Assembly: GCA_050953065.1 (NCBI GenBank)
Contig: JBMNLZ010000002.1
Coordinates: 512,001 to 576,000 of the forward strand
Direction of reading: 5' to 3'
Origin: Bacilli bacterium
GTDB taxonomy: Bacteria; Bacillota_I; Bacilli_A; ML615J-28; CAG-698
Length of the DNA: 64,000 nt
Under the pieces are notes generated by a model. The model did not search any database. It was not told the origin of the DNA and saw nothing but the letters and a program-made list of their open reading frames with translations. Made by a program: the position numbers and the translations under genes. Below, one piece after another: positions 4,306 to 56,694 of the stretch. The stretch's first letter is position 1; each line of letters opens with the position of its first letter.

Positions 4306-5154
4306 ATGTATAAGGTATTAGAAAAAAGAAATTTAAATCCAAGTGTAGGTTTTTTAAAAATTGAAGCGCCGTTAGTTTCAAGAAGGGCTGAACCTGGGCA
4401 ATTTATTATCCTAAGAGCAAACGAAGAAGGCGAAAGAACACCTTTTACTATTTATGATTATGATAGAGAAAAAGGTACTATTAGTATAATCTTTCAAATT
4501 GTTGGCGCTACTACTAGAAGATTAGATGCATTAAAAGTAGGAGATTATATTTTAGATGTTGTAGGTCCTTTAGGAAAAGCGGTAGAATTTGATAATGTTA
4601 AAGATGCAATCGTAGTAGGTGGTGGAGTGGGATGTGCGATAGCATTTCCAATTGTTAAAAAACTTCATAATCTAGGAATAAATGTTACTTCAATCATTGG
4701 CTTTAGAAATAAAGATTTAGTAATTTTAGAAGATGAGTTTAAAAAAGTGAGCAATGACTTTTATCTTATGACAGATGATGGGTCACATGGTGAAAAAGGA
4801 ATGGTAACTGATGCTTTAAGAAGATTACTTGAAAAGAAAAAATATGATAAAGTATATGTTATTGGACCTTTGATAATGATGAAGTTTGTATCTTTACTAA
4901 CAAAAGAATTTAATACTTCAACTGTTGTTAGTATGAATTCAATTATGGTTGATGGAACTGGAATGTGTGGAGGCTGTAGAGTAACAGTTGGTGGAGAAGT
5001 AAAGTTTGCATGTGTTGATGGACCTGATTTTGATGGACACTTAGTTGATTTTGATGAAGCAATTCAAAGAAGCAGAATTTATGCTGATGTTGAGAAAAAG
5101 CGGGATGAGGCTACGTGCAATTTGTTTAAGGTGAAAAAAGATGAACTTAAGTAA
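4306..5154 (+). CDS. nfnA: NfnA/SudB-like flavoprotein subunit (FAD/NAD, 2Fe-2S)
   Basis: PGQFIILR, GPLG, GGGVG and MVDGTGMCGGCRV...FACVDGPDF motifs. Confidence 0.85.
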   Translation: MYKVLEKRNLNPSVGFLKIEAPLVSRRAEPGQFIILRANEEGERTPFTIYDYDREKGTISIIFQIVGATTRRLDALKVGDYILDVVGPLGKAVEFDNVKDAIVVGGGVGCAIAFPIVKKLHNLGINVTSIIGFRNKDLVILEDEFKKVSNDFYLMTDDGSHGEKGMVTDALRRLLEKKKYDKVYVIGPLIMMKFVSLLTKEFNTSTVVSMNSIMVDGTGMCGGCRVTVGGEVKFACVDGPDFDGHLVDFDEAIQRSRIYADVEKKRDEATCNLFKVKKDELK

Positions 5155-8384: not shown

Positions 8385-8413
8385 TTGTAAAAAAAGGGAG
8401 TTAATGGTATAAT
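8385..8413 (+). promoter_or_regulatory. Promoter of the pur leader
   Basis: TTGTAA-17 nt-TATAAT with TGn extension, about 10 nt before the riboswitch. Confidence 0.75.
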
Positions 8414-8423
8414 AAGACATAAT

Positions 8424-8500
8424 AAGAGGTTTGTATAATCGCTTGAATATGGAAAGCAAGTTTCTACCTTAAGACCGTAAATCTTAAGACTACAAATTTT
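8424..8500 (+). ncRNA. Purine riboswitch aptamer, guanine-type
   Basis: TTGTATAATCGCTTGAATATGGAAAGCAAGTTTCTACCTTAAGACCGTAAATCTTAAGACTACAA matches the xpt-type core; the discriminator (GAC before the 3' P1 strand) is C, which indicates guanine. Confidence 0.95.
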
Positions 8501-8561
8501 AGAACATAAGCGAATAATACCCTCTATACATTTTAAAAAATTGGTAAAAGGAGGTACAAAT

Positions 8562-30400: not shown

Positions 30401-31026
30401 TGAAAGAAGTAGCAAAAGCCTTATTAGAAATAAAAGCTGTATTTTTATCACCAGATAAACCATTTACTTGGGCAAGTGGAATTAAATCACCGATTTATTG
30501 TGATAATAGATTAATATTATCATACCCAAAAGTGAGAAAAATGATTGAAAATAAATTTGCTATGATGGTAAAAAATGAATTTCCGGATTGTGAGTTATTA
30601 ATGGGAACTGCAACTGCTGGAATTCCTCATGCAGCATACATTAGTGAAATCTTAAATTTGCCGATGGGCTATGTTAGAAGTAGTAGTAAAGATCATGGAA
30701 GAAATAATCAAATTGAAGGGAAGTATGAAAAAGGCCAAAAGGTTGTAGTTATTGAAGACTTAATTTCAACTGGAAAATCTTCAATTGAAGTTGTTAATTC
30801 ATTAATTGAAGCAGGAGTAGAAGTTTTAGGAATCGCATCAATTTTTACTTATGAATTAGAAAAAGCAAAACAAAACTTTGAAAGCATGAAGATAAAAACT
30901 ATCTCACTTACTAACTATTCAACTTTAATTGAAGTTGCCATTGAAGAAAAATATATTGCTAGTGATTCAATGGATAAATTAATTAAGTGGAAAAAAGATC
31001 CAAGCGATGAAAGTTGGATGCTTTAA
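30400..31026 (+). CDS. pyrE: Orotate phosphoribosyltransferase
   Basis: FTWASGIKSPIYCDNR and VIEDLISTGKS motifs. Confidence 0.95.
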   Translation: MKEVAKALLEIKAVFLSPDKPFTWASGIKSPIYCDNRLILSYPKVRKMIENKFAMMVKNEFPDCELLMGTATAGIPHAAYISEILNLPMGYVRSSSKDHGRNNQIEGKYEKGQKVVVIEDLISTGKSSIEVVNSLIEAGVEVLGIASIFTYELEKAKQNFESMKIKTISLTNYSTLIEVAIEEKYIASDSMDKLIKWKKDPSDESWML

Positions 31027-31039
31027 TACATAAATTGTC

Positions 31040-31069
31040 TTGACAAAACACTTAAAAGTGTAGTATAAT
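31040..31069 (+). promoter_or_regulatory. Consensus sigma-A promoter of the T-box/lyase unit
   Basis: TTGACA-18 nt-TATAAT. Confidence 0.85.
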
Positions 31070-31091
31070 CTTTTATAGATTGATTAATATA

Positions 31092-31301
31092 GGCGTAGAA
31101 GAAATCGGAGTAGTTTTTAATAACTTACTAATAGAGAGTGTTTGGTTGGTGGAAAAACATGGAGTTTTAAAGACGAATTACAATTTTGGAGCTTATCGTA
31201 TGCTTTGCGTTAAAAAGTATAAAGAGCATCTGTTAAAGATGAAGTAAAGGTGGTACCGCGGAAAAGTTTTCGTCCTTGAATTAATTCAAGGACCTTTTTT
31301 T
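31092..31301 (+). ncRNA. T-box riboswitch, Tyr specifier (UAC)
   Basis: AGTA loop-E, AGAGA and GGTGGAA apical motifs; GAA-T-TAC-A specifier loop (TAC 31179-81); T-box AAGGTGGTACCGCG (31247-60) with CGTCCTT partner; terminator GTCCTTGAAT-TA-ATTCAAGGAC followed by a T run. Confidence 0.9.
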
Positions 31302-31333
31302 ATAAAAATAAATTAATAGGAGAAGTAAAAAAA

Positions 31334-32779
31334 ATGAAAATTAAAATGTTTAACGGTGAAAATTTACCTTTAGAAATGCATAAGGTAAAAATTGTTCAAA
31401 AATTAAATTTAATCCCAATCGATCAAAGAAAAAAGGCAATTGAAGAAGCAGGCTTTAACACATTCTTACTTAAAAATAGAGATGTATTTTTAGACATGCT
31501 TACAGATAGTGGTGTTAATGCAATGAGCGATAATCAATTAGCAGCTATGATGGTAGCAGATGATGCTTATGCAGGGAGTGAAACATATTATAGATTTGAA
31601 GAAAAATTAAGAGAAATTATAACTTTGCCTTATATTTTACCAGCTCATCAAGGAAGAGCTTGTGAGAATATTATTAGTCATGCATATGTAAAAAAAGGTG
31701 ATATTGTACCGATGAACTTTCATTTTACTACTACAAAATCTCATATTACTCTTAATGGTGGAACAGTTATTGAGTTATTAATTGATGAAGGATTAAATGT
31801 GAATAGTAATTATCCTTTTAAAGGGAATATGGATTTAGTAAAATTAGAAAACTTCTTTAAAACAAATGGAACTGAAAATGTACCGTTTGTAAGAATAGAA
31901 GCTGGAACGAACCTAATTGGTGGTCAACCAATTTCACTAGAAAACTTCAAAGCAACTACTGCTTTATGTAAAAAATATAAAGTTAGAACAGTATTAGATG
32001 CAAGCCTACTTCAAGATAACTTATATTTTATTAAAACAAGAGAAGAGGCTGCTAAAAACAAATCAATTAGAGAGTTAACAAAAGAAATTTGTTCTGAATT
32101 TGATATTGTATATTTTTCTGCAAGAAAATTTGGTTTTGCAAGGGGTGGAGCAATCTGCATTAAAGATGAAAAAGAATGTTTGAAAATGAAAGCGCTAGTC
32201 CCTCTTTATGAAGGTTTCTTAACTTATGGTGGAATGAGTGTCAAAGAAATTGAAGCTATTACTGTAGGACTTGAAGAAACTATGGATGAAGATATTATCT
32301 CTCAAGGACCTTTATTTATAGAATATATGGTTAAGGAATTAGAAAAAGCAGGTGTACCTGTTGTTACTCCAGCAGGAGGGCTTGGATGTCATTTAAATGC
32401 TAAGGCCTTTGTTTCTCATTTATCTTCTAAAGATTATCCAGCAGGGGCTTTAAACGCGGCTTTATATCTAATAAGTGGTGTTAGAGGTATGGAAAGAGGA
32501 ACACTTTCAGAACAAAGAAATCCTGATGGAACTGAAGTTTATGCAGAAATGGAACTTGTGAGACTTGCTGTACCTAGAAGAGTCTTTACTTTATCTCAAA
32601 TTAAATATGCTATAGATAGAATTGTTTGGCTTCATAAAAATAAAGATTTAATTGGTGGATTAGAATTTTATGATGAGCCTGAAATTTTAAGATTCTTCTT
32701 TGGTAGATTAAGACCAGTAAATAATTGGCCTGAAAAATTAGTAAAGAAATTTAAAGAAGATTTTAAAGATAGTTTATAA
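31334..32779 (+). CDS. PLP-dependent beta-eliminating lyase, tyrosine phenol-lyase-like (TPL/tryptophanase family)
   Basis: DMLTDSG, DAYAGS, HQGRA, PFKGNMD, SARK (PLP Lys), YEGFLTYGG and RLAVPRRV; specificity positions FTTT, MERG and LRFF are TPL-type. Confidence 0.85.
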   Translation: MKIKMFNGENLPLEMHKVKIVQKLNLIPIDQRKKAIEEAGFNTFLLKNRDVFLDMLTDSGVNAMSDNQLAAMMVADDAYAGSETYYRFEEKLREIITLPYILPAHQGRACENIISHAYVKKGDIVPMNFHFTTTKSHITLNGGTVIELLIDEGLNVNSNYPFKGNMDLVKLENFFKTNGTENVPFVRIEAGTNLIGGQPISLENFKATTALCKKYKVRTVLDASLLQDNLYFIKTREEAAKNKSIRELTKEICSEFDIVYFSARKFGFARGGAICIKDEKECLKMKALVPLYEGFLTYGGMSVKEIEAITVGLEETMDEDIISQGPLFIEYMVKELEKAGVPVVTPAGGLGCHLNAKAFVSHLSSKDYPAGALNAALYLISGVRGMERGTLSEQRNPDGTEVYAEMELVRLAVPRRVFTLSQIKYAIDRIVWLHKNKDLIGGLEFYDEPEILRFFFGRLRPVNNWPEKLVKKFKEDFKDSL

Positions 32780-32789
32780 TATAACAGTA

Positions 32790-32822
32790 AAAAGTCTTAA
32801 TATTTTATTAAGACTTTTATTA
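32790..32822 (+). terminator. Terminator after the lyase
   Basis: AAAAGTCTTAATA-TTT-TATTAAGACTTTT inverted repeat. Confidence 0.75.
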
Positions 32823-32878
32823 TTTATTAAAGAATTATTAAAAATAAAATAATAAAATTGTTTTCATTATAAAAACAC

Positions 32879-32907
32879 TTGTATTTAAAATAAAAACAAT
32901 GTATAAT
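32879..32907 (+). promoter_or_regulatory. Promoter of the thr operon
   Basis: TTGTAT-17 nt-TATAAT. Confidence 0.6.
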
Positions 32908-32935
32908 ATATAAAAAGTATAAAAAAGGAATAATT

Positions 32936-34393
32936 ATGTTTACAAGTACAAGAAAGAAAATTAACGTTTCTAGTTCAAAAGCTATTATAGATGGAATTTC
33001 AAAAGATGGTGGCTTATATATTGTTGATAGAATTCCGAAAGTAAAGATTGAAGAATTAGTTAATCTAAATTATAAAACTCTAGCTGTTAAAATTTTGAGT
33101 TTATATTTAAAGGATTTTAGTATTGAAAGTCTTGAAAAAATAGTTAGTGAGGCTTATGCTAAATTTGATATAGAAGAAGTAGTTAACTTAAAAGAGTTTG
33201 GTAATTTTTCATTTTTAGAACTTTATCATGGCCCAACTCTTGCTTTTAAAGATTTAGCATTAACTGTTTTACCGCTTTTAATGAATGAAGCAAAAAAAAT
33301 TAATAATGATAAATCAAAAACTATTATTCTAACTGCTACATCTGGAGATACTGGTAGTGCTGCTTTAAGTGGTTTTAGTACAGTTGATAATAGTGGAATT
33401 ATTGTAATTTATCCTAATAAGGGAATTAGTCAAATTCAAGAAAAACAAATTCTTTCATTTACTAATAATCAAGCTAAAGCATTTGCTTTAGAAGGTAATT
33501 TTGATGATGCACAAAACTTAGTAAAGAAAATTTTTGGTGGAAGTGAGTTCTTAGCAGCTCTAAAAAATAAAAATGTTTCAAGTGCAAATTCAATTAATAT
33601 AGGACGTCTTATTCCTCAAATTGTTTATTATTTTTATAGTTATATTAAATTAGTAAAAAACAAAAGTGTTAAACTACATGATAAAATTAATTTTTGTGTA
33701 CCTACAGGAAATTTTGGAAATATTTTAGCGGGTTATTTTGCTAGTTGTATGGGGTTACCTGTAAAGAGGTTAATTTGTGCATCAAATATTAATAATGTTT
33801 TACATGACTTTTTTGAAACAGGAATTTATGATAAAAATAGAGTTTTAGAATTAACGAATTCTCCTTCAATGGATATCTTAATTTCTTCTAATCTTGAAAG
33901 ACTTTTATATTATATTTCTGGTAAAAAGCCTAACAAAGTTCGTGAATTGATGGATAAATTATCTACTGTTGGAAGATATCAAATTTCTTCTTCAATGAAA
34001 AGAAGAATGAAAATCTTCGAAAGAGGTTATGCTGATGATAAAGAAACTTTAGAAAATATAAAGGAAGTTTTTGAAAAGCATCAATATTTGATTGATACAC
34101 ATACAGCGGTAGGATATAAGGTTTATAAAGATTATCAGTATAGGACTAATGATAATACAAAAACAGTAATTTTATCAACTGCAAGTGGCTTTAAGTTCCA
34201 AGATGCTGTAATTGAAGCTTTAGGCATAAAGAAAGGGAATTCTTTAGTTGAATCTTTAAAATCAATTAGTGATTATACAAAGATAAAAATACCTTCTTCA
34301 CTGGAAAAAATTGCTAATAAAGAATTTATAAAAAATGAAATTTCTAGTAAGGAAGCAATTGATAAAATTAAAAAAACTATAGGTGATTTATAA
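32936..34393 (+). CDS. thrC: Threonine synthase
   Basis: ELYHGPTLAFKD, ATSGDTG, NSINIGRL and VPTGNFGN motifs. Confidence 0.95.
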   Translation: MFTSTRKKINVSSSKAIIDGISKDGGLYIVDRIPKVKIEELVNLNYKTLAVKILSLYLKDFSIESLEKIVSEAYAKFDIEEVVNLKEFGNFSFLELYHGPTLAFKDLALTVLPLLMNEAKKINNDKSKTIILTATSGDTGSAALSGFSTVDNSGIIVIYPNKGISQIQEKQILSFTNNQAKAFALEGNFDDAQNLVKKIFGGSEFLAALKNKNVSSANSINIGRLIPQIVYYFYSYIKLVKNKSVKLHDKINFCVPTGNFGNILAGYFASCMGLPVKRLICASNINNVLHDFFETGIYDKNRVLELTNSPSMDILISSNLERLLYYISGKKPNKVRELMDKLSTVGRYQISSSMKRRMKIFERGYADDKETLENIKEVFEKHQYLIDTHTAVGYKVYKDYQYRTNDNTKTVILSTASGFKFQDAVIEALGIKKGNSLVESLKSISDYTKIKIPSSLEKIANKEFIKNEISSKEAIDKIKKTIGDL

Positions 34394-43408: not shown

Positions 43409-44938
43409 ATGAGTATTTTAAAAGTAGAAAATTTAAAATTTAGTTATGGCGAAAATGATCTATTTAATAATGTTAATTTTGATTTACATTTAAATGATCA
43501 TTTAGGCTTAGTTGGTGCTAATGGTAGTGGAAAAACAACATTTTTAAATTTAATATCACATAAAATTTATCCTGATAAAGGAAGTGTTACGTGGGATAAT
43601 AAAGTTAGTTTTAGTTACCTAGACCAACATTTAAAGATAGATACCAATATTACTATTGAAAAATATTTATATGATGTTTATGAAGAACTTTTTTTAAAAG
43701 AAAAAGAAATGAATAAACTATATAAATCTTTAGAAAATCCAGATGGAGTTGATATTGACAGGATTTTAAATAAAGCCTATAATATTCAAAGTTATTTAGA
43801 AGAAAAAGATTTTTATCAAATTAAATCAAAAATTGGGAATGTTTTAAATGGCTTAGGGATAAATGTAGAAGAAGATAGACTTCTTAGTGAGTTATCAAGT
43901 GGCCAAAGAATTAAAGTGTTTTTAGCTAAAATGCTTTTAGAAGAAAAGGATGTTTTATTATTAGATGAACCAACTAACTTCTTAGATGCAGTTCATATTG
44001 ATTGGCTAACTAAATATTTGAATAATTATAAAAATGCATTTATTGTAATTTCACATAATTATGTTTTTTTGAATGCAATTTCAAATTGTATTGCAAATCT
44101 TGAGAATAAAGATATTGTTAAATACAGGGGGGATTTTGAAAGTTTTTTGCTTCAAAAAAGTTTAAGGGATAATTTTTATAAAAAAGAATATGAAGCACAA
44201 CAAAAAAGAATTAAAAGTTTACAAGAGTTTGTTGATAAAAATATTGTAAGAGCAACAACTGCCAAACGAGCTAAAAGTAGACAAAAACTTTTAGATAAAA
44301 TTGTGGTTATGGAAAAACCTCAAAGTGAGAAAAAGGTCCATTTTGAGTTTAAGTTTACTAGTGGATTTAATAGAAAAGCATTAATCTTAAATGATTTATG
44401 TATTGGTTATAAGAAGAGTTTATTAGCACCTTTGAATTTTTCTATATCTTTTGGAGAAAAGGTTGTTATTATTGGTAAAAATGGTGTTGGTAAAACAACC
44501 TTTTTAAAAACAATTTTAGGTGAAATTCCTGCCATTAGTGGAAGTTATAAGTTAGATGAATTAAATAAAGTTTTGTATTATAAGCAAGAAGAAGCGTTAG
44601 AAAATATTACCCCGCTTCAGTATATAAAGAATTTATATATGTTAATGACTGATGAGGATATTAGAAAACTACTTGCAAGGTATGGAATAAGGGGAAAACT
44701 TGCTTTAAAGACAATGGATAAGTTAAGTGGTGGAGAAGTAACTAAAGTGAGATTTGCAAGACTTAGTTTAGAAAAATCTAATTTATTGATCCTAGATGAA
44801 CCGACTAATCATTTAGATAATACTGCTAAGAAAGCTTTGTTTGAAGCTGTTAATAAATATGAAGGAACTGTAATCATGGTTTCTCATGAAAAAGAATTTT
44901 ATAAAGAATTAAATATGAAAGAGATTAAATTTGAATGA
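43409..44938 (+). CDS. ABC-F family ribosome-associated ATPase
   Basis: Two Walker A motifs (GANGSGKT, GKNGVGKT), two LLDEPTN-type Walker B motifs, no TM segments. Confidence 0.92.
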   Translation: MSILKVENLKFSYGENDLFNNVNFDLHLNDHLGLVGANGSGKTTFLNLISHKIYPDKGSVTWDNKVSFSYLDQHLKIDTNITIEKYLYDVYEELFLKEKEMNKLYKSLENPDGVDIDRILNKAYNIQSYLEEKDFYQIKSKIGNVLNGLGINVEEDRLLSELSSGQRIKVFLAKMLLEEKDVLLLDEPTNFLDAVHIDWLTKYLNNYKNAFIVISHNYVFLNAISNCIANLENKDIVKYRGDFESFLLQKSLRDNFYKKEYEAQQKRIKSLQEFVDKNIVRATTAKRAKSRQKLLDKIVVMEKPQSEKKVHFEFKFTSGFNRKALILNDLCIGYKKSLLAPLNFSISFGEKVVIIGKNGVGKTTFLKTILGEIPAISGSYKLDELNKVLYYKQEEALENITPLQYIKNLYMLMTDEDIRKLLARYGIRGKLALKTMDKLSGGEVTKVRFARLSLEKSNLLILDEPTNHLDNTAKKALFEAVNKYEGTVIMVSHEKEFYKELNMKEIKFE

Positions 44939-46795: not shown

Positions 46796-46825
46796 ATAGG
46801 GGACCGAAGAAGTTTTTAAGATATT

Positions 46826-47052
46826 AATCGAAGATCAAGAAGAGTAGTAATATCTTTTTGTTAAAGCAAGTTAGAGATGATGAGAGTCTAACACAAAAAA
46901 TATTATGAACCGCATCTTGGGAGATAACCATTTGAAATAGTAGTAGAATGGTCGTTAATAAGCGTTAATTATTAGAGGGGTTATAGATGTAACAATTAGA
47001 GTGGTACCGCGGAAAGATTTCGTCTCTTTTATTTTTAAAAGAGACTTTTTTT
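46826..47052 (+). ncRNA. T-box riboswitch, Arg specifier (CGC)
   Basis: AGTA loop-E, GATGAGA apical loop, GAA-C-CGC-A (CGC 46911-13), AGAGTGGTACCGCG (46998-47011) pairing with CGTCTCT; terminator GTCTCTTTTA...TAAAAGAGAC followed by a T run; precedes the arg genes. Confidence 0.9.
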
Positions 47053-47081
47053 ATTATATTGATATGAAAAGGAGAAAGTAA

Positions 47082-48296
47082 ATGAAAAAAATTAAAAAAG
47101 TTGTTTTAGCTTATTCAGGAGGTTTAGATACTTCTATTATTATCCCATGGTTGAAAGAAAACTATGGTTGTGAGGTTATTGCTGTTGCTGGTAATTTAGG
47201 TCAAGATAAAGAATTAGAAGGCTTAAAAGAAAAAGCTATTGCTACTGGAGCTTCAAAAATTTATATTGAAGATTTAACAGAAGAATTTATTACTGATTAT
47301 ATATATCCAACTTTAAAAGCTGGAGCTAAATATGAAAACAAATATTTGCTTGGAACTTCATTTGCAAGACCAATTATTGCGAAAAGAGTTGTAGAAATTG
47401 CTTTAAAAGAAAATGCTGATGCCATTGCTCATGGATGTACTGGTAAAGGAAATGACCAAGTAAGGTTTGAATTAACAATTAAAGCTTTTGCTCCTAATAT
47501 GAAAATTATTGCTCCATGGAGGATTTGGGATATTAAGAGTAGAGATGAAGAAATAGATTATGCAATTGCAAAAAATATTCCTTTAAAGATTACAAGAGAA
47601 ACAAACTATTCAAAAGATATGAATATTTGGCATTTATCTCATGAAGGAATGGATTTAGAAGATCCAGCTAATGAACCAAATTTTGATAAGATTTTAGAAT
47701 TAGGTGTTTCACCTGAAAAAGCACCTGATAAACCAACTTATATTACAATTGATTTTGAAAAAGGAATTCCTGTTGCAGTTGATAATAAAAAATTAGATCC
47801 TGTAAAAATGTTAAGGTATTTAAATGAAATTGGCGGAGCAAATGGAATTGGAATCATTGATATGGTAGAAAACAGACTAGTTGGTATGAAGAGTAGAGGT
47901 GTTTATGAAACACCAGGTGGAACGATTCTTTATGCAGCTCATGAAGCGTTAGAATCAATTTGTTTAGATAGAGATACACAACACTACAAACATCAAGTAG
48001 CAATCAGATTTGCTGAGTTAGTATATTATGGACAATGGTTTACACCATTAAGAGAAGCTTTATCTGCTTTTGTTGATAAAACTCAAGAAACTGTGACAGG
48101 GTCAGTAAAATTAAAACTATATAAAGGCAATATTACACCTGCTAGTATTACAAGTCCTTATTCACTATATTCTGAAGAAATCGCAACTTTTGGTGAAGAT
48201 CATGTTTATAACCAAAAAGATTCAGAAGGATTTATAAATTTATTTGGACTACCAATTCAAGTTAAGGCTTTAACTGATAAGAAAAATAAAAAATAG
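47082..48296 (+). CDS. argG: Argininosuccinate synthase
   Basis: [23 protein letters not shown] and KSRGVYETP motifs. Confidence 0.97.
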
Positions 48297-48307
48297 GAGA
48301 AAAATTT

Positions 48308-49690
48308 ATGAAAAAAATGTGGGCAGGAAGATTTGAAAAAAATCTAAATAAAAAAGTTGATGATTTTAATTCTTCATTACATTTTGATATGAGAATGTAT
48401 CAAGAAGACATTATTGGATCGATTGCTCATGTTGAAATGCTTGCAGAGCAAGGAATAATAAGTAATGAAGATTCAAAAAAAATCAAGAATGGTTTAATTG
48501 AAATTCTTGATGAAATTAATAATGGTAAACTTGAGATTAAAGATGCTGAAGATATTCATATGTTTGTTGAAGCAAAACTAATAGAAAAGTTAGGTGAAGT
48601 TGGTAAAAAACTACATACTGCAAGAAGTAGAAACGATCAAGTAGCTCTAGATATAAAGTTATATTTAAAAAAAGAAATAACTTTAATTAAAAAAGAATTA
48701 ATTCAATTAATTGAAAAAACATTAAAAATTGCAGAAGATAATAAAACTAGTGTAATGCCTGGATATACTCATCTTCAAAGAGCTCAACCCATTACCTTTG
48801 CTCATCACTTATTGGCATATTGTTTTATGTTCTTAAGAGATACTGAAAGATTAGATGATACATATAAAAGAATGGATTATTCACCACTTGGTGCTTGTGC
48901 TTTAGCTGGAACAACTTATCCAATTAATAGAGTTAATGTTGCTAAAAAATTAGAGTTTGAAGGAGTTGTTTTAAATAGTCTTGATGCAGTGTCTGATAGA
49001 GATTATGTAATAGAACTAGCTTCAAATATTTCAGTAATTATGATGCATTTGTCAAGATTTTCAGAAGAAGTTATTCTTTGGAGTACTTCTGAATTTAAAT
49101 ACATTGAATTAGATGATGCTTATTCGACTGGCTCTAGTATTATGCCACAAAAGAAAAATCCTGATGTTGCAGAACTTGTAAGAGGAAAATCAGGAAGATC
49201 ATTTGGTAATTTGATGGCTTTGTTGACTGTTTTTAAAGGGCTACCTTTAGCATATAATAAAGATATGCAAGAAGATAAAGAAGCTATTTTTGATAGTATA
49301 GATACAGTGAAAATGTGTTTAAGTGTTTTTGGTGATATGTTAGCTTCTATTAAAGTAAATAAAGATAAAATGAAAGAAGCCGCTAGTAGTGGTTTCATGA
49401 ACGCTACAGATGTTGCTGATTATTTAACTAAAAAAGGTTTAGCCTTTAGAGAAAGTTATGAAGTTGCAGGGAAGTTAGTGGCTGAAGCAATAAAATCTAA
49501 GTATACTTTTGAGTCAATGCCACTTGATGTATACAAAAAATTTAGTAATAAATTTGAAGATGATATTTATAAGGTAGTTGATATTGAAAAATGTGCTTTC
49601 AGTAGAAATTCTTTAGGTGGTCCTGCTGTAAAAGAAGTAGAAAAACAAATTGAATATATAAAGAAAGAAATTAAAAAAAATGAAGTATAA
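48308..49690 (+). CDS. argH: Argininosuccinate lyase
   Basis: HTARSRNDQ, GYTHLQRAQP and GSSIMPQKKNPD motifs. Confidence 0.97.
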   Translation: MKKMWAGRFEKNLNKKVDDFNSSLHFDMRMYQEDIIGSIAHVEMLAEQGIISNEDSKKIKNGLIEILDEINNGKLEIKDAEDIHMFVEAKLIEKLGEVGKKLHTARSRNDQVALDIKLYLKKEITLIKKELIQLIEKTLKIAEDNKTSVMPGYTHLQRAQPITFAHHLLAYCFMFLRDTERLDDTYKRMDYSPLGACALAGTTYPINRVNVAKKLEFEGVVLNSLDAVSDRDYVIELASNISVIMMHLSRFSEEVILWSTSEFKYIELDDAYSTGSSIMPQKKNPDVAELVRGKSGRSFGNLMALLTVFKGLPLAYNKDMQEDKEAIFDSIDTVKMCLSVFGDMLASIKVNKDKMKEAASSGFMNATDVADYLTKKGLAFRESYEVAGKLVAEAIKSKYTFESMPLDVYKKFSNKFEDDIYKVVDIEKCAFSRNSLGGPAVKEVEKQIEYIKKEIKKNEV

Positions 49691-50612
49691 AGTATTTATA
49701 GATGGCCAAGAAGGAACTACTGGTCTTAGAATTTTTGAAAGATTAAAAAATAGAAATGAAATTGAACTTCTTAGTATTGATAGTGATTTAAGAAAAGATA
49801 GTGTTGAACGTCAAAAACTAATAAATCAATCTGATTTAACAATTCTTTGTTTACCAGATGTTGCAAGCAAAGAAGCAGTTACTTTAGTTACTAATCCAAA
49901 TACTAAAATAATTGATGCTTCAACTGCTTTTAGGACATCTAATGATTGGGCGTATGGACTACCTGAATTATCAAATAATCATTTTGAGAAAATTAAAAAT
50001 TCTAAAAGAGTTGCTGTTCCAGGATGTCATGCAAGTGGTTTTATTTCTTTAGTATATCCTTTGGTTGTTAATAATATCATTGATAAATCTGCTATTATGT
50101 CATGTGTTTCAGTGACTGGATATAGTGGTGGTGGTAAAAAAATGATTGCAGATTATGAGAATAAATCAAGAGATATTGCACTAGATAGTCCAAGACAATA
50201 TGCTTTAACTCAAATGCATAAACATTTGCCTGAAATGAAAACTATCTGTGGGTTAGAAAATGAACCAATCTTTATTCCGATAGTATCAGATTATTATTGT
50301 GGTATGGTTGTGAATGTTACTTTACATAAAAATAATATGAAAACAGTTAAAACATTTGAAGAAATAAAAAAGATGTATAGTGATTTCTACAAAAACCAAA
50401 AATGTGTTAGATATATTAAAACAGAGGATGCTTATCTTGCAAGCAATACTCTTGCAGAAAAAGACTATTTGGAAATATTTGTTTTTGGAAATGATGAAAG
50501 AATGACACTAGTTGCAAGATTTGATAATTTGGGCAAAGGTGCAAGTGGTGCTGCTGTGCAATGTATGAATATCATGCTTGGACTAGATCCAACAACTGGA
50601 CTAGCTCTATAA
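49680..50612 (+). CDS. argC: N-acetyl-gamma-glutamyl-phosphate reductase (short type)
   Basis: VFIDGQEGTTGL, PGCHA and DNLGKGASGAAVQ motifs. Confidence 0.95.
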   Translation: MKYKVFIDGQEGTTGLRIFERLKNRNEIELLSIDSDLRKDSVERQKLINQSDLTILCLPDVASKEAVTLVTNPNTKIIDASTAFRTSNDWAYGLPELSNNHFEKIKNSKRVAVPGCHASGFISLVYPLVVNNIIDKSAIMSCVSVTGYSGGGKKMIADYENKSRDIALDSPRQYALTQMHKHLPEMKTICGLENEPIFIPIVSDYYCGMVVNVTLHKNNMKTVKTFEEIKKMYSDFYKNQKCVRYIKTEDAYLASNTLAEKDYLEIFVFGNDERMTLVARFDNLGKGASGAAVQCMNIMLGLDPTTGLAL

Positions 50613-50624
50613 AGGAAGGTCAAA

Positions 50625-51836
50625 ATGAAAGTTATAACAAACGGAATATGCGCTGCTAAAGGATTTAAAGGAGCGGGCATTCACTGTGGTATTAGAAAAA
50701 ATCGTAGCAAGAAAGATTTAGCTTTAATCTTTAGTGAAAAAAAAGCTAGTGCAGCTTGTGTTTATACTACTAATCTAGTTAAAGGTGCACCAATCTATGT
50801 TACACAAAGAAATGTTGCTGATGGATTTGCACAAGCAATAATTTGCAATAGTGGTAATGCTAATACTTGTAATGCTAATGGACAAGAAATAGCTCAAAAA
50901 ATGTGTGATTTGGTAGCAAATGAATTAAAGATAAATGCTAGTGATGTTATAGTTGCATCAACTGGTGTTATTGGGGAACCTCTTAATATTAAAGCAATTG
51001 AAGATAATATTGATATTTTGGTTGCATCCCTTGGTAATGATAGTAGTAGTGTGGCACATGCTATAATGACAACTGATTTAGTTGAAAAAGAAATTGCTGT
51101 TTCTTTTGAAATTTCAGGAGTTGAGTGTAGATTAGGTGGAGTTGCAAAAGGCTCTGGAATGATTAATCCTAATATGGCAACAATGTTAGTTTTCTTAACA
51201 ACTGATGTTAGTATAGAAAAAAGTTTGTTACAAAAAGCATTACTTGATGCAACAAACGATACTTTTAATATGGTAAGTGTTGATGGCGATACATCAACTA
51301 ATGATATGGTGAGTATTCTTGCCAATGGTATGGCGAACAATAAAACAATTACAAAAATAGATGCTGATTATCAAACATTTTATAATGCTTTAGTTTATGT
51401 GATGAAACATTTATCTAAAGCAATTGCACAAGATGGAGAAGGTGCTACTAAACTATTAGAGTGTAATGTAGTCGGTGCTCCAACAAAAGAAGCAGCTAGA
51501 ATAATTGCTAAAAAAGTTATTTCTTCATGCTTAGTTAAAGCAGCAATGTTTGGTTCTGATGCTAACTGGGGAAGAGTTTTATGTGCCATTGGTTATAGTG
51601 GAGTAGATGTTAAAATTAATTTAATTGATGTAAAATTTGAAAGTGAAAAAGGGGAAATTTTGGTTTGTCAAAATGGAGCTGGAGTACGCTTTGATGAAGA
51701 GAATGCGAAATCAATTTTAAAAGAAAAATATGTAAAGATTAATATTTCTTTAAACCAAGGGAACTTCAATGCTACTGCTTGGGGCTGTGATTTAACATAT
51801 GATTATGTAAAAATTAACGGCGATTATAGAAGTTAG
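50625..51836 (+). CDS. argJ: Ornithine acetyltransferase
   Basis: NSGNAN, KGSGMINPNMATML and DGDTSTND motifs. Confidence 0.97.
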   Translation: MKVITNGICAAKGFKGAGIHCGIRKNRSKKDLALIFSEKKASAACVYTTNLVKGAPIYVTQRNVADGFAQAIICNSGNANTCNANGQEIAQKMCDLVANELKINASDVIVASTGVIGEPLNIKAIEDNIDILVASLGNDSSSVAHAIMTTDLVEKEIAVSFEISGVECRLGGVAKGSGMINPNMATMLVFLTTDVSIEKSLLQKALLDATNDTFNMVSVDGDTSTNDMVSILANGMANNKTITKIDADYQTFYNALVYVMKHLSKAIAQDGEGATKLLECNVVGAPTKEAARIIAKKVISSCLVKAAMFGSDANWGRVLCAIGYSGVDVKINLIDVKFESEKGEILVCQNGAGVRFDEENAKSILKEKYVKINISLNQGNFNATAWGCDLTYDYVKINGDYRS

Positions 51837-51846
51837 GAGATTTAAA

Positions 51847-52698
51847 ATGGATATTACTAATGATGTAAGAACGAAAGTTTTGATTCAAGCTTTACCATAT
51901 ATTCAAAAATACTACAATAAAGTTGTGGTTGTTAAATATGGTGGTAATGCTATGACTGATGAAAATCTTAAAAAAAGTGTAATTGAAGATGTTGTTTTAT
52001 TATCTTTGATTGGGATGAAGGTTGTCTTAATTCATGGTGGAGGACCTGAAATATCTGGTATGCTTACTAAGTTAGGTATGAAAAGTGAATTTATTGATGG
52101 TTTAAGAGTTACAGATAAAGATACAGTTGAAGTTGTACAAATGATTTTAGCTGGTAAAATCAATAAAGACTTAGTTAATTATGTTCAAGCTGCTGGTGGA
52201 AAAGCAATTGGTCTTTCTGGAATTGATGCAAAAATAATTGAAGCAAAACCGATTAATAAAAAATTAGGTTTTGTTGGTGAAATTACTAATATCAATCCTA
52301 CACCAATTTTAGAGTTGCTAAATCTTGGATATATTCCAGTTATTTCAACTGTAGCAAGTGATAAAGAAGGAAATACTTACAATATCAATGCTGATACTGC
52401 TGCTGCAAGAATTGCAGGAGCATTAGAGGCTGAAAGTTTTCTTTCTTTAACTGATGTAATAGGTTTACTTAAAGATAAAGATGATCCAACTTCACTAATT
52501 TCTTCAGTTAATGTTTCTGAGGTTAAGTCTTTAGTAAAAGAAGGCATAATTTCAGGTGGAATGATTCCAAAGGTAGAATGTTGTTGTGAGGCAATTAGAA
52601 GAGGTGTTAAAAAAGTATTTATAATTGATGGCAGAGTTCCTCATTCGATTTTAATTGAATTGTTAAGCGATGAGGGGATAGGAACGATGTTTACTTAA
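51847..52698 (+). CDS. argB: Acetylglutamate kinase
   Basis: VKYGGNAM, HGGGP, NINAD and GGMIPK motifs. Confidence 0.97.
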   Translation: MDITNDVRTKVLIQALPYIQKYYNKVVVVKYGGNAMTDENLKKSVIEDVVLLSLIGMKVVLIHGGGPEISGMLTKLGMKSEFIDGLRVTDKDTVEVVQMILAGKINKDLVNYVQAAGGKAIGLSGIDAKIIEAKPINKKLGFVGEITNINPTPILELLNLGYIPVISTVASDKEGNTYNINADTAAARIAGALEAESFLSLTDVIGLLKDKDDPTSLISSVNVSEVKSLVKEGIISGGMIPKVECCCEAIRRGVKKVFIIDGRVPHSILIELLSDEGIGTMFT

Positions 52699-52714
52699 AA
52701 AAGGGAGAATAAAA

Positions 52715-53881
52715 ATGGATTTTTCTAAAATAAAATATGAAGATAATAAATATATTCTTAATTCATATAAAAGATTTGATGTAGCTCTTAAGAGTGGAAA
52801 AGGTTCTACATTTTATGATGTTAATGATAAAAAGTATATTGACTTTTCTTCAGGCATAGCAGTTAATACATTTGGAATTGCTGATTCTAAATGGGTTAAG
52901 GCTATTACAAAACAAGCGAAGACATTACAGCATGTTTCAAATCTATACTATTCATTACCTCAAATAGAACTTGCTAAAATTCTTTGTAGAAAAACAAAAA
53001 TGAAAAAGGTGTTTTTTGCTAATTCAGGAGCAGAAGCTAATGAAGGAGCAATCAAAGCAGCAAGAAAATATAGTTTTGATAAATATGGTGAAAACAGATT
53101 TGAAATTATTACTCTTAAAAATAGTTTCCATGGTAGGACGATGGCTACATTATCAGCTACTGGACAAGACTTATTTCATAAGTTTTTTAATCCTTTTTTG
53201 GAAGGATTTAAATATGCAACAGCAAATGATATTACTTCAGTAAAGTCTTTAGTTAGCAAAGCAACTTGTGCGATAATGCTTGAGACGATTCAAGGTGAGG
53301 GTGGAGTTTTAAATCTAGAAGAAGAGTTTTTAAAAGAAGTAGAAAAGATATGTAAGAAGAATGATTTAGTTTTTATCATTGATGAAGTACAAACTGGAAA
53401 TGGGAGAACTGGTTATTTTTATAGCTATATGGAATATAATCTAAAACCTAATATTGTTACTACTGCAAAAGGGCTAGGTGGTGGATTACCAATTGGTGCA
53501 ATTTTATTTGACAGCAAATTAGAAAATACTATTGGTTATGGTGAGCACGGTTCGACTTTTGGTGGAAATCCAATTGCTGCAGCAGGAGCTGTTAGTGTTT
53601 TAAAAAGGATTAATGATAACTTCTTAGAAGAAGTAAAGAAAAAATCAAAAATTATTTTTAATAAACTGTCTACTTTTAAAAAAGTAGGAGAGATTAGTGG
53701 AAAAGGTTTAATGATAGGTTTTAAAACTTCTTTAAATGCAGATGAAGTTGTTGATCTTTGTCTAGATAAAGGACTATTAGTATTAAAAGCAAAGGATAAG
53801 ATCAGAATTTTACCTCCTTTAAATATTTCACATGAAGAATTAGAAGAAGGGCTTTCTATCTTAGAGGGGATTTTAAAATGA
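52715..53881 (+). CDS. argD: Acetylornithine aminotransferase
   Basis: NSGAEANE, SFHGRT, DEVQTG and AKGLGGG motifs. Confidence 0.93.
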   Translation: MDFSKIKYEDNKYILNSYKRFDVALKSGKGSTFYDVNDKKYIDFSSGIAVNTFGIADSKWVKAITKQAKTLQHVSNLYYSLPQIELAKILCRKTKMKKVFFANSGAEANEGAIKAARKYSFDKYGENRFEIITLKNSFHGRTMATLSATGQDLFHKFFNPFLEGFKYATANDITSVKSLVSKATCAIMLETIQGEGGVLNLEEEFLKEVEKICKKNDLVFIIDEVQTGNGRTGYFYSYMEYNLKPNIVTTAKGLGGGLPIGAILFDSKLENTIGYGEHGSTFGGNPIAAAGAVSVLKRINDNFLEEVKKKSKIIFNKLSTFKKVGEISGKGLMIGFKTSLNADEVVDLCLDKGLLVLKAKDKIRILPPLNISHEELEEGLSILEGILK

Positions 53882-54780
53882 AACATTTTTTAAAAATGAG
53901 TGACTTAAGCACTCAAGAGATTATTGATATTCTAAATTTAGCTGATCAATTAAAATATCAGAAAAAAAATAATGTTGCACATAATCATTTACAAGGTAAA
54001 ACTTTGGGAATGATTTTTCAAAAAGCTTCTACAAGAACAAGAATTTCTTTTGAAGTTGCAATGTATGATTTGGGTGGCTATCCTTTATTTTTAAGTGCCA
54101 ATGATTTGCAAATAAGTAGAGGAGAGCCTATTCAAGATACTGCAAGAGTTTTATCTAGATATCTAGATGGGATAATGATTCGTACATTTGCTCAAAAGGA
54201 AGTTGAAGACTTAGCAAAATATGGTTCAATTCCTGTAATTAATGGATTAACTGATTATGAGCATCCTTGTCAAGTTATGGCAGATTTAATGACAATCAGA
54301 GAATTTAAAGGAAGTTTTAAAAATTTAAAGGTAGCTTACATTGGAGATGGAAACAATATGGCTAATTCTTTAATTGTGGGATGTTTAAAACTTGGTATGG
54401 AAATCACTGTTGCAACGCCTAAAGGTTATGAACCAGCTGAAGATATCTTAGCTTGGGCAAAAGACTTTGAAGGATTTAAGTTAGTTAATTCACCAGTAGA
54501 GGCTGCAAAAGATGCTGATGTTTTATTTACGGATGTTTGGGCTTCAATGGGACATGAAAAACAAGTAGAAGCTAGACAAACTGCTTTTAAAGGTTTTCAA
54601 ATTAACAAAGATTTATTGAAAAATGCAAAAAGCGATGCAATAGTTCTTCATTGTTTACCAGCACATAGAGGTGAAGAAATTACAGAAGAAGTATTTGAAG
54701 ATAACGCTGAAGTGATTTTTACTGAAGCAGAAAATAGATTACATGCTCAAAAAGCTATATTAGTTACTTTATTGAAATAG
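53878..54780 (+). CDS. argF: Ornithine carbamoyltransferase
   Basis: STRTR, HPCQ and HCLP motifs. Confidence 0.97.
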   Translation: MKHFLKMSDLSTQEIIDILNLADQLKYQKKNNVAHNHLQGKTLGMIFQKASTRTRISFEVAMYDLGGYPLFLSANDLQISRGEPIQDTARVLSRYLDGIMIRTFAQKEVEDLAKYGSIPVINGLTDYEHPCQVMADLMTIREFKGSFKNLKVAYIGDGNNMANSLIVGCLKLGMEITVATPKGYEPAEDILAWAKDFEGFKLVNSPVEAAKDADVLFTDVWASMGHEKQVEARQTAFKGFQINKDLLKNAKSDAIVLHCLPAHRGEEITEEVFEDNAEVIFTEAENRLHAQKAILVTLLK

Positions 54781-54832
54781 TTTGATATAATATAACAAAT
54801 AAAAATTGCTTAAAGAAAGCGAGTAAATTAAT

Positions 54833-55849
54833 ATGATTATTACTTTTAAGAAAAATGCTCCCATCAATGAGCTAAATGAATTAGTTTCAAAATTAGAAAC
54901 CTTAGGAATAAAAATTGCTGATGCAAGCAGTGATAATCTGGGACTGTTTGGTTTGATTGGTGATACTTCAGTTGTAGATATTGAAAAAATTCAAGCTTAT
55001 TCTTGGGTGCTTGAAGTTACAAGAATTACAGTTCCCTATAAAAAAGCCAGTAGACAGTTTCATCCTATTGATACAATTGTTGATGTTTCTTCTGTAAAAA
55101 TTGGTGGAAATGAAAAGGTGGTAATTATTGGAGGACCATGCTCTGTTGAAAATGCAGAGCAAATTGATGAAATAGCTAAAGGAGTAAAAGAAGCAGGAGC
55201 TGTTTTATTAAGAGGTGGTGCATATAAACCGAGAACATCACCATATGTATTTCAAGGGCTTGAAAAAGAAGGCATTGATTTGTTAAAGGCTGCAAAAGTA
55301 AAATATGGTTTACCAATCGTTTCAGAAATTATGTCAGTTGAAAAGGTTGATGAATTTGTAGAGAATGTTGATTTAATCCAAATTGGTGCAAGAAATATGC
55401 AAAATTTTGATTTGCTTAAAAAGGTAGGGAAAACAAATAAACCAATTCTTTTAAAAAGAGGATTATCAAATACTATACAAGAATGGTTGATGAGTGCTGA
55501 ATATATTTTAAATAGTGGTAATCCTAATGTTATTCTTTGTGAAAGAGGAATTAGAACTTTTGAACCTCTAACTAGAAATACTTTAGATTTATCAGTTATT
55601 TCAATTGTTAAAAAATTATCACATTTACCAATTATTATTGATCCATCTCATGCAACAGGAAACTGGGAATTAGTTGAAACTATTTCGCTAGCAGCGATTG
55701 TTGCGGGATGTGATGGCTTGATGATTGAAGTTCACAACAATCCTGAAAAAGCTTTATCAGATGGTCAACAATCTTTAAAGATTGATAAGTTTAAAGATTT
55801 GGTAGTAAAAGCAAAAAAACTTGCTCAATTTATTGGTAGGGATATATGA
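54833..55849 (+). CDS. aroF: DAHP synthase, type I-beta with N-terminal ACT-like domain
   Basis: GPCSVE, RGGAYKPRTSPY, IGARNMQN, LCERG and DPSH motifs. Confidence 0.93.
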   Translation: MIITFKKNAPINELNELVSKLETLGIKIADASSDNLGLFGLIGDTSVVDIEKIQAYSWVLEVTRITVPYKKASRQFHPIDTIVDVSSVKIGGNEKVVIIGGPCSVENAEQIDEIAKGVKEAGAVLLRGGAYKPRTSPYVFQGLEKEGIDLLKAAKVKYGLPIVSEIMSVEKVDEFVENVDLIQIGARNMQNFDLLKKVGKTNKPILLKRGLSNTIQEWLMSAEYILNSGNPNVILCERGIRTFEPLTRNTLDLSVISIVKKLSHLPIIIDPSHATGNWELVETISLAAIVAGCDGLMIEVHNNPEKALSDGQQSLKIDKFKDLVVKAKKLAQFIGRDI

Positions 55850-56694
55850 TTTTAAAGAGTAAAAACATCTTAATAGTAGGCCTAGGTTTAATTGGAGGAA
55901 GTTATGCCGAAGGCTTAAGCAAAAAGGGATATAAGGTTTTTGGAATTGATATTGATAAAGAAGCCGTCAAATATGCTAAAGAAAAGAAGTTTATTGATAA
56001 TAAGGGTTTAACAGAAGAAGAGATCTTAGCTCAAAGTGATATTATTGTTTTAGCAATATATCCTACTAAAGTTGTTGATTTTTTAAAAGAACATCAAAGT
56101 AAACTTAAAGAAAATTGTATAATTACTGATACAAGTGGTATTAAACTTTCAGTGGTTAATCCTGTTTTAGAAGTTTTAAGAGAAGACATAGATTTTGTTT
56201 TTTCTCATCCAATGGGAGGAAAAGAATCAAAAGGTATTTATAATGCAGATGCAAATGCTTTTAAAGGTGCAAACTTTTTAATTATTCCGACTGCTAAAAA
56301 TAAGAATGAGTCAATTGAAGTAATAAAAGAATTAGCAAGAGTTTTAGAATTTAAAAATATTGAAACTATTTCAATTGAAGAACATGATAAAACGATAAGT
56401 TTTTTATCGCAATTAACACATGCCATTGCAGTTAGTTTAATGAATTCTAAAGAAAATAGTAATTTTATAAAGTATACTGGGGATTCTTTTAGAGATCTAA
56501 CTAGAATCGCTAAAATAAATGAAGACTTATGGTCAGAGTTATTTTTGCTAAATAAAGATAATTTACTTGAAGATATTGATCTTTTTATATCTGAATTAGA
56601 AAATTTAAAGGATAAAATTAAAACTGATGATAAAGAAAGCTTAAAGAAATTGTTTGTTGAGGCAACAAAAAGAAGAAAGGCATTTGATAAATAA
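55846..56694 (+). CDS. tyrA: Prephenate dehydrogenase
   Basis: GLGLIGGS, HPMGGKE, EHD and SFRDLTRIA motifs. Confidence 0.92.
   Translation: MILKSKNILIVGLGLIGGSYAEGLSKKGYKVFGIDIDKEAVKYAKEKKFIDNKGLTEEEILAQSDIIVLAIYPTKVVDFLKEHQSKLKENCIITDTSGIKLSVVNPVLEVLREDIDFVFSHPMGGKESKGIYNADANAFKGANFLIIPTAKNKNESIEVIKELARVLEFKNIETISIEEHDKTISFLSQLTHAIAVSLMNSKENSNFIKYTGDSFRDLTRIAKINEDLWSELFLLNKDNLLEDIDLFISELENLKDKIKTDDKESLKKLFVEATKRRKAFDK

Follow-up and report, generated by a model that had tools for sequence, protein, structure and literature searches.

A tyrosine T-box ahead of a tyrosine phenol-lyase-like gene: a candidate route from phenol to tyrosine

In T-boxes, an uncharged cognate tRNA stabilises the antiterminator and the gene is switched on, and the founding leader of the tyrosine class is that of Bacillus subtilis tyrS, with the specifier UAC. 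Leader-peptide attenuators of the pheL or trpL type are likewise known for amino-acid operons. Here we analysed a 64-kb stretch of DNA (the window; 29-30% G+C) from the 1.55-Mb draft genome of a Bacilli bacterium (GCA_050953065.1; three contigs, 93.9% complete), in which a T-box leader of the tyrosine class precedes a single gene for a pyridoxal phosphate (PLP) lyase, denoted as P0001, that resembles tyrosine phenol-lyase (TPL; EC 4.1.99.2). Tyrosine T-boxes of the Bacillus cereus group control the tyrosine operon and phenylalanine-4-hydroxylase, as described in the relevant sections of PMC2494555. Canonical tpl is induced 32-fold by excess L-tyrosine through TyrR and its enzyme is catabolic, according to the portions of PMC10170061 and PMC1173090 that deal with its regulation.

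Compared with tyrosine-class T-boxes, the lyase leader shares a Stem I with AG bulge, distal loop and S-turn, the UAC codon followed by a purine, the UGGU bulge, the terminator/antiterminator pair and a sigma-70 promoter, whereas its target is a TPL-family lyase rather than tyrS or a known gene of the tyrosine pathway, and Stem II is missing. P0001 in turn belongs to the same fold family as TPL (PF01212), lies on the nearest branch of the tree and keeps the catalytic and ring residues, but it sits in a separate clade with a long stem, has about 25 extra residues at the C-terminus, is changed at TPL positions 217, 256, 288, 69 and 262, and is regulated in the opposite sense, being on at tyrosine starvation. 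Both the T-box and the TPL-family enzyme are known kinds; the novelty lies in a separate clade whose regulatory logic is inverted and whose role is probably anabolic. Judged from sequence comparisons, the enzyme of this clade, induced by tyrosine starvation, seems to make tyrosine from phenol, and we give this reading a probability of roughly 0.55. Literature searches, which covered articles outside their supplements so that an earlier listing there is possible, returned no description of the T-box/lyase pairing or of the clade. Word searches of Wels 2008 (PMC2494555) and Sun 2013 (PMC3766115) gave no hit for tryptophanase, phenol or tnaA, nor, in Wels 2008, for 'lyase'.

Two kinds of predicted tyrosine-responsive leader ahead of the lyase gene and its orthologues

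On the forward strand, positions 31040-32779 form one compact transcription unit of promoter, T-box leader, terminator and the single lyase gene. The consensus promoter reported in the initial annotation was recovered as a predicted sigma-70-type promoter at 31040-31069 (TTGACA-18 nt-TATAAT), which matches the consensus at 12 of 12 positions and is the best of 11 promoter-like sites in 30900-33100. The leader, which the same annotation had called complete, extends over 31087-31280; in a covariance-model search it matched RF00230 over the full model (positions 1-219) with 105.6 bits (gathering score 93, E 2.8e-22), but Stem II is deleted (model positions about 109-134), with the IIA/B-like CGUAUGCUUUGCGUUA kept. 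Since the alaS, serS, pheS and thrS leaders of the same genome show the same reduction, we regard the missing Stem II as a lineage variant, judging from these alignments. The Rfam alignment further shows the AG bulge AGAGAG, the distal loop GGUUGGUG and the S-turn AGUA/GAA. The specifier region reads GAA-U-UAC-A, with GAA at 31175-31177, the tyrosine codon UAC at 31179-31181 (model positions 91-93) and the purine A at 31182. The T-box sequence AAAGGUGGUACCGCG contains UGGU at 31251-31254, predicted to pair with the A73-C-C-A end of the uncharged tRNA, and the tRNA-Tyr(GUA) of the genome ends in A73-CCA, in line with the compatibility that had been claimed for this bulge. An intrinsic terminator with a 9-bp stem and a 4-nt loop lies at 31272-31293, with its T run reaching 31301, and is the only terminator-like site found in the scan of 30900-33100; in the Rfam alignment the bases of its 5' strand also serve as the 3' strand of the antiterminator helix, so the two structures are mutually exclusive. 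A ribosome-binding site, read by eye, and the 1446-base open reading frame (ORF) of P0001 (31334-32779; 481 residues) follow.

The 3' halves of the T-boxes before the lyase gene (31196-31280), asnS (L040) and pheS (L041) are nearly identical (..UUGCGUUA-AAA..AUAAAG.GCAUCU.. and CAAAGGUGGUACCGCGGAAAAGUUUUCGUCCUUGAA), which suggests that these leaders arose by recent duplication or conversion in which only Stem I was re-specified.

To calibrate the reading of the specifier, we used the other T-boxes of the window genome, ten being found in all. With the genes identified by family search, the specifier matched the gene behind it in nine of the nine others: GUA before valS, GCU before alaS, AUG before O-acetylhomoserine sulfhydrylase, UCU before serS, UGG before trpB (C2:594366-594607), AAC before asnS, UUC before pheS, ACU before thrS (L043; C2:360103-360311) and CGC before argG (window 46822-47030; 128.6 bits). 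None of the ten lies before tyrS. The initial annotation had read the lyase specifier by the spacing GAA-N-codon-A, with the argG leader as a control; the CGC codon was confirmed, but the spacing is not a general rule and was rejected as such, as the spacer has 0 bases in pheS and 2 in thrS. Our working rule, a codon and then a purine immediately adjoining the lower stem, was correct in all nine of these T-boxes.

The thrS leader carries UAA in place of the usual S-turn GAA, has two spacer bases before ACU and contains UAC twice in the string. As such, it shows how easily a specifier is misread from one sequence.

Applied to the lyase leader, the working rule gives UAC-A if an inserted u/a pair extends the stem and ACA-A if it does not. 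In the second case the specifier would be the threonine codon ACA, one base further 3', and the T-box would be a threonine switch for the lyase gene together with thrC, thrB, an ACT protein gene, hom and asd, which lie downstream in this order. We consider this barely credible. It has the local sequence on its side, as GAAUUACAAUUUU permits ACA and then a purine A directly next to a 4-bp stem, and the only tRNA-Thr found in the genome has the anticodon UGU, a perfect match to ACA. This tRNA also carries A73, as tRNA-Tyr does, so the discriminator base, tried as a test between the two amino acids, is uninformative. Moreover, thrC begins 157 bases past the end of the lyase gene, and the Rfam scan shows no separate T-box before it. 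Between the two genes, however, an A+T-rich hairpin with a T-rich tail starts seven bases after the lyase stop (32786-32821, forward strand; minimum free energy -12 kcal/mol, z -3.6, with 1 of 200 shuffles as stable); having only two G-C pairs, it was not listed in the consensus terminator scan, and it is probably a terminator that separates the lyase gene from thrC. A TG-extended -10 box, read by eye, precedes thrC, and the genome's own thrS T-box uses ACU rather than ACA.

The decision between tyrosine and threonine comes from the orthologues, whose upstream regions were surveyed for tyrosine T-boxes as proposed in the initial annotation. Loci were collected from a protein search (33 loci), from a family-alignment search (the 80 best of at least 586 relatives) and from 400 sampled genomes belonging to the phylum of the window, nine of which, the window's included, hold an orthologue of at least 60% identity. 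A T-box stands directly before the orthologue in 31 of the 54 Firmicutes-type loci with readable upstream DNA, a count that leaves out the same-contig duplicates L079, L099 and L131 and the 5'-truncated loci L023, L026 and L027. The 30 genomes other than the window's are spread over several Firmicutes orders. In 22 of these T-boxes (those of the window, L010, L031, L047, L048, L050, L054 and 15 more) the score reaches the Rfam gathering threshold, and the remaining nine (L049 and eight others, one of them cut by the locus end) score 48.5-90.4 bits, all with E <= 1e-7; on rescanning, 0 of 15 motif-negative Firmicutes loci had a T-box. The regulated lyase gene is mostly monocistronic, and the genes downstream vary or lie on the opposite strand.

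All 31 T-boxes carry UAC at the specifier, read in 23 loci from a motif-anchored printout rather than from a covariance-model alignment. UAC is followed by A in 23, by G in 6 and by C in 2, which makes a purine in 29 of 31. This variation suits the threonine reading in one respect, since ACN always encodes threonine. That reading would nevertheless leave an invariant U before ACN in 31 of 31 T-boxes unexplained, would find a purine after ACN in only 3 of 31, and would place ACN 3 bases from the K-turn in two loci, outside the range of the nine calibrated leaders; the distance between UAC-N and the K-turn GA is 4-5 bases, a range shared with those nine. Elsewhere, the genes behind orthologue T-boxes are not beside thr genes. 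The threonine reading was therefore rejected on the 31 orthologue T-boxes. Because UAC is invariant across them, a purine follows it in nearly all and the orthologues are not beside thr genes, we take the lyase leader to be tyrosine-specific and its thr neighbourhood to be coincidental, which upholds the specifier first read from a single sequence.

A second kind of sensor appeared when 78 loci without a T-box were screened for short upstream tyrosine-rich ORFs. In L029 (a Johnsonella metagenome-assembled genome, MAG), a promoter, a ribosome-binding site and MLNSISKNLNYYYYYYI-stop come first, and alternative hairpins and a terminator lie behind them. The leader peptide in L008 is ..NVNYYYYYFMEARSYN (..NVNYYYYYF..), likewise with a terminator, and the Bacteroidetes loci L011 and L012 have a leader peptide ..AAYMYYYYRSS.. 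and a terminator. In each of these, a short ORF with 4-6 consecutive tyrosine codons plus a terminator precedes the orthologue, the same arrangement as in attenuators of the pheL and trpL type; L083 (MVEKYYY) and L110 are weak cases. The count of tyrosine runs alone is unremarkable: among runs of at least four identical residues in any upstream forward frame, those of tyrosine occur in 4 of 78 loci, leucine and alanine are equally frequent and arginine has 10. It is the ORF context and the terminators that mark L029, L008, L011 and L012 as predicted attenuators. Loci of Proteobacteria, Spirochaetes and Verrucomicrobia had no leader with at least three tyrosines in eight residues within 400 bases. 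The attenuator is not present in the window, and it is a different device serving the same regulatory end as the T-box. Two unrelated sensors of tRNA-Tyr are thus predicted to control the same gene family in two phyla.

Family position and active site of the lyase

P0001 matched PF01212 with 166.8 bits (cut-off 27) and NF009709, a broad NCBIfam subfamily named 'tryptophanase', with 585.7 bits (cut-off 285). It stayed below the cut-offs of all three equivalog models, with 435.9 bits against 720.7 for TIGR02618 (TPL), on which the TPL representative P0136 scores 733, and, for the tryptophanases, 351 against 825.8 for TIGR02617 (TnaA) and 397.8 against 750 for NF053783. Its best solved relatives are the TPLs of C. 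freundii (2ez1/1tpl; E 1.2e-111) and E. herbicola (1c7g; about 1e-111), to which it aligns over the full length at about 40% identity, and tryptophanases follow at 1e-92 and weaker. The best 120 relatives are 65-99% identical to P0001, have nearly all 477-514 residues and carry the label 'tryptophanase' or 'tyrosine phenol-lyase' in their sources. After clustering at 50%, hardly more is left of the family than a single full-length representative with 60% identity and another with 49%.

In a quick IQ-TREE search with 14 family members and 30 other representatives, all 14 family rows group in one separate clade, set on a long stem, with a support of 100 in the Shimodaira-Hasegawa-like approximate likelihood ratio test (SH-aLRT). 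This agrees with the distinct subfamily that the initial annotation had suspected. The family is sister to the TPL-type clade with a joint support of 98, and the tryptophanase-type rows lie across the main split. By the NCBIfam cut-offs P0001 is neither a TPL nor a tryptophanase, and the tree places it in a conserved sister clade of TPL. The clade is present in at least 586 species-level genomes of many phyla, among them Firmicutes, Bacteroidota, Spirochaetes, Verrucomicrobia, Alpha- and Betaproteobacteria and Actinobacteria and in one archaeal MAG.

Eight more distant relatives (P0123-P0126, P0130 and P0132-P0134) have about 890-930 residues and two matched stretches each, 32-37% identical to P0001, the better of which fills the C-terminal half. 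They might represent a tandem arrangement of two lyase-family domains.

To compare active sites, residues were mapped by hand on the HMMER alignment to 2ez1 and tabulated on a MAFFT alignment, and C. freundii TPL numbering is used below. In TPL, as given in the mechanistic sections of PMC10170061, K257 forms the Schiff base with PLP and removes the alpha proton, ring tautomerisation and C-C cleavage use R381 as the base and Y71 as the acid, the phenol OH is held in place by T124, and F448 and F449 contact and press on the ring. The family keeps Y71, R100, F123, T124, N185, D214, S254, K257, M379, R381, R404, F448 and F449. The P0001 residues K265, Y79, R388, T132, F454 and F455, which correspond to K257, Y71, R381, T124, F448 and F449, are invariant in 33 family sequences, and the ring-pocket residues are unchanged in all 14 tabulated members. 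P0001 has T124, M379, R381 and F448 where tryptophanase-type proteins of the same superfamily have D, V, I/L and H: in the 25 rows that are neither family nor TPL-type, D stands at 124 in 20, V at 379 in 13, I or L at 381 in 12 and H at 448 in 19. The motifs FTTT, MERG and LRFF of P0001 are accordingly of TPL type, and both this observation and the two deviations noted with it, DASL for DATR and SARK for SGKK, were reproduced. 'Tryptophanase', the name that most databases give to P0001, is best regarded as a mis-annotation.

The family also has changes of its own. L225, R264 and F295 replace TPL R217, K256 and M288 and are invariant in 33 aligned family sequences, whereas, among the 30 TPL-type and other relatives, 27 retain R217 and 27 retain K256. 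Position 69 (E in TPL) is constantly D, and position 262 (N in TPL) is R in 12 and K in 2 of the 14 tabulated members. We take E69 and N262 to belong to the monovalent-cation site of TPL and R217 to contact the cofactor. Classical TPL requires K+ or NH4+, according to PMC10170061.

Considering that the active site is not identical to that of TPL at positions 69, 217, 256, 262 and 288, the enzyme might make or split another aromatic amino acid, or be only a serine/cysteine desulfhydrase or dehydratase, with tyrosine control being indirect. The wider superfamily has many unclassified branches, and TPL-family enzymes eliminate from L-serine and L-cysteine as well, as reported in the substrate sections of PMC10170061. 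T124, R381 and F448/F449 are nonetheless kept in 14 of 14 tabulated members, set against the D and H of most non-TPL-type relatives, and two independent kinds of tRNA-Tyr sensor on the same gene point to tyrosine. A substrate other than tyrosine is therefore very improbable.

Proposed tyrosine formation from phenol and the alternatives

To see in which genomes the lyase gene lies under tyrosine control, carriers were grouped by the regulatory feature before tyrA was counted, with tyrA called as PF02153 above its cut-off. Among the genomes with the T-box pairing, tyrA was found in 13 of 31 and not found in 18. Carriers without a tyrosine sensor had tyrA without exception, in 20 of 20 genomes of Firmicutes type and 49 of 49 of other phyla (69 of 69 together), and carriers with a tyrosine-run leader had it in 2 of 5 (L029 and L083, not L008, L011 and L012). 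A Fisher test on the Firmicutes-type table gives p = 1e-5, a value that overstates the significance as related genomes are not independent. Among the 18 tyrA-less T-box genomes, six have chorismate synthase and in 12 it was not found; four of these 12 belong to the same class as the window and are 96-99% complete, and among the four is a closed chromosome of 2.0 Mb. Most of the compared genomes are MAGs of unstated completeness, so that 'not found' does not equal 'absent', which weakens the census as support for tyrosine formation. Incompleteness is an unlikely cause of the missing tyrA, however, because all 66 MAG-rich control genomes showed the gene.

Because the phenol site is kept, two sensors of tyrosine starvation precede the gene and such control is concentrated in genomes without another tyrosine route, the enzyme appears to supply tyrosine, the ring of which would then have to come from phenol. 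We infer the direction of the reaction, the substrates, the three-carbon donor, the phenol affinity and the physiological role from these patterns. In the proposed mechanism, the anticodon of uncharged tRNA-Tyr(GUA) would pair with the UAC of Stem I and its free ACCA end with UGGU, the antiterminator would replace the terminator at 31272-31301, and the lyase gene would be transcribed from the consensus promoter. The lyase would join scavenged phenol to a three-carbon amino-acid unit, giving L-tyrosine, with the unit coming from pyruvate plus ammonium by reverse elimination or from serine or cysteine by beta-replacement; TPL itself does beta-replacement and uses L-serine and L-cysteine, as stated in the sections of PMC10170061 on its reactions. 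In the window genome, with tyrA, this would be a cheap salvage route, and in relatives without tyrA or without the whole shikimate pathway the lyase would be the only endogenous tyrosine route.

The enzyme could also be an ordinary catabolic TPL that splits tyrosine into phenol, pyruvate and ammonia, with the T-box link being incidental or serving, for example, nitrogen or carbon supply. Such a role would suit a protein that aligns to solved TPLs over its full length at about 40% identity and has lost none of the phenol-handling residues, some sources name the relatives 'tyrosine phenol-lyase', and the tyrA found in 69 of 69 carriers without a tyrosine sensor makes a catabolic role possible there. 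The regulation runs the other way: a T-box is on when the tRNA is uncharged, whereas canonical tpl is on at excess L-tyrosine, and destroying tyrosine when starved of it would be self-defeating. Conservation of the pairing extends over 31 loci, and another kind of tyrosine-starvation sensor has evolved for the same gene; the TPL equivalog cut-off is missed by a protein whose clade has a support of 100; and carriers that lack the whole shikimate pathway would be breaking down an amino acid that they cannot produce. Taking both sides together, we consider ordinary tyrosine breakdown quite improbable.

Removal of tyrosine look-alikes would fit the on-when-uncharged logic as well as synthesis does. 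Ring-substituted tyrosines, m-tyrosine or 3,4-dihydroxyphenylalanine (DOPA) could block tyrosyl-tRNA synthetase, the poison would leave tRNA-Tyr uncharged, and the T-box would fire for a lyase that destroys them. TPL accepts L-DOPA and other ring-substituted tyrosines, as listed in the substrate sections of PMC10170061, and auxotrophs that depend on uptake are the most exposed to analogues, which could explain the link with missing tyrA. There is no evidence for any particular analogue, though, and the ring pocket is that of the tyrosine/phenol site (the 14 tabulated members show no change there, and its residues are invariant across all 33 aligned sequences), so that an analogue-destroying lyase would attack tyrosine too. 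It is also less economical than biosynthesis, which has precedent among tyrosine T-box regulons. Analogue removal seems unlikely.

Several points weigh against tyrosine formation from phenol. DAHP synthase at 54833-55849 and prephenate dehydrogenase (tyrA) at 55846-56694 lie within the window and chorismate synthase is on another contig, so the window genome can, by its gene content, make tyrosine independently of the lyase. The proposal of the initial annotation that tyrosine is formed from phenol is thus strongly supported in its regulatory logic, by the T-box and leader peptides, the tyrA census and the residues, but not in a need for the route in this genome. TPL is reversible only at high phenol, pyruvate and ammonia and is inhibited by phenol, according to the kinetic sections of PMC10170061, and the family-specific changes at 217, 256, 288, 69 and 262 may make the chemistry differ from that of TPL in unpredictable ways. 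Carriers without a tyrosine sensor, given their tyrA, could use the enzyme catabolically. When 353 flanking ORFs were clustered, no neighbour was conserved across phyla, with synteny being lineage-local only, and no phenol source or transporter was linked to the lyase gene among them. Our literature searches found no biochemical or genetic test of any clade member.

A parallel to the proposed role is found in the window genome itself, where a canonical trpB (G000:C2:593007-594269, minus strand, outside the window; TIGR00263, 539 bits) stands alone behind its Trp T-box, and trpA (PF00290) and trpC (PF00218) were not found in the 93.9%-complete genome. This stand-alone trpB looks like a gene for indole-to-tryptophan salvage. 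The logic is the same, in that one PLP enzyme could rebuild an aromatic amino acid from a free ring under the cognate T-box; TrpB, however, is of fold type II and joins serine and indole, so the analogy is one of logic and not of homology. As a shared ring-salvage companion of the lyase trpB was rejected, being present in only one of five tyrA-less relatives, together with trpA there, and this too counts against tyrosine formation.

More broadly, there is in our estimate an even chance that the clade represents a natural 'tyrosine synthase', a one-enzyme, non-orthologous substitute for the prephenate-dehydrogenase route, which would build L-tyrosine from environmental phenol and let bacteria that lack a shikimate pathway depend on phenol released by tyrosine-fermenting neighbours, in a tyrosine-to-phenol-to-tyrosine cross-feeding loop of guts and digesters, with the changes near the cofactor and at the presumed cation site (D69, L217, R256 and R/K262) being adaptations for synthesis at low substrate. 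Serine as the donor would possibly make such a reaction effectively irreversible, as in TrpB. If tyrosine formation holds, the 'tryptophanase' label is wrong in at least 586 species-level genomes and the actual role is anabolic; metabolic models would err in classing carriers as tyrosine auxotrophs in any setting that offers phenol; besides its sources, the phenol of the gut, from which the uremic toxin phenyl sulfate is formed, would also have a sink in microbes; and a tyrosine-forming counterpart of TrpB would exist in the TPL fold, with defined residue changes.

Neighbouring genes and other elements

Some lineages have local arrangements around the orthologue. In seven loci, a gene for a DUF554 membrane protein (PF04474; L051 gives 214.5 bits) comes immediately after the orthologue on the same strand (L051:2355-3062 and the +1 genes of L083, L110, L113, L115, L116 and L133); these loci are from Bacteroidaceae, from a Bacillota MAG and from one relative of the order to which the window belongs. 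The arrangement is not general, and the protein may be a transporter partner. In a Bacillota MAG, a cyclic di-GMP-I riboswitch (L024:2984-3073; 74.3 bits) is placed about 900 bases upstream of the orthologue with no long ORF between them. In L053, the orthologue follows a gene for a 96-residue Dabb protein (stress-responsive A/B barrel; 4468-4758, genome G237) and precedes formate-tetrahydrofolate ligase, and the set is apparently one operon without a T-box. The flanking genes and tRNA of L018, a record titled Oscillospiraceae bacterium, match the Oxalobacter loci in L015-L022, and its contig is probably mis-binned.

Within the window, the arginine (CGC) T-box precedes argG-argH-argC-argJ-argB-argD-argF, and after a 52-base gap the genes for DAHP synthase and prephenate dehydrogenase follow on the same strand (46822-56694). 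This pair has no T-box of its own, and the tyrosine genes at 54833-56694 may be transcribed as part of the arginine operon or from a promoter that escaped notice. A purine riboswitch aptamer (RF00167, 77.6 bits) lies at 8411-8512 on the forward strand, ahead of ORFs that start at 8691 and 9174. An ABC-F family ATPase is encoded at 43409-44938 on the same strand, its best model being 'ribosomal protection-like ABC-F' with 368.1 bits at a cut-off of 380.

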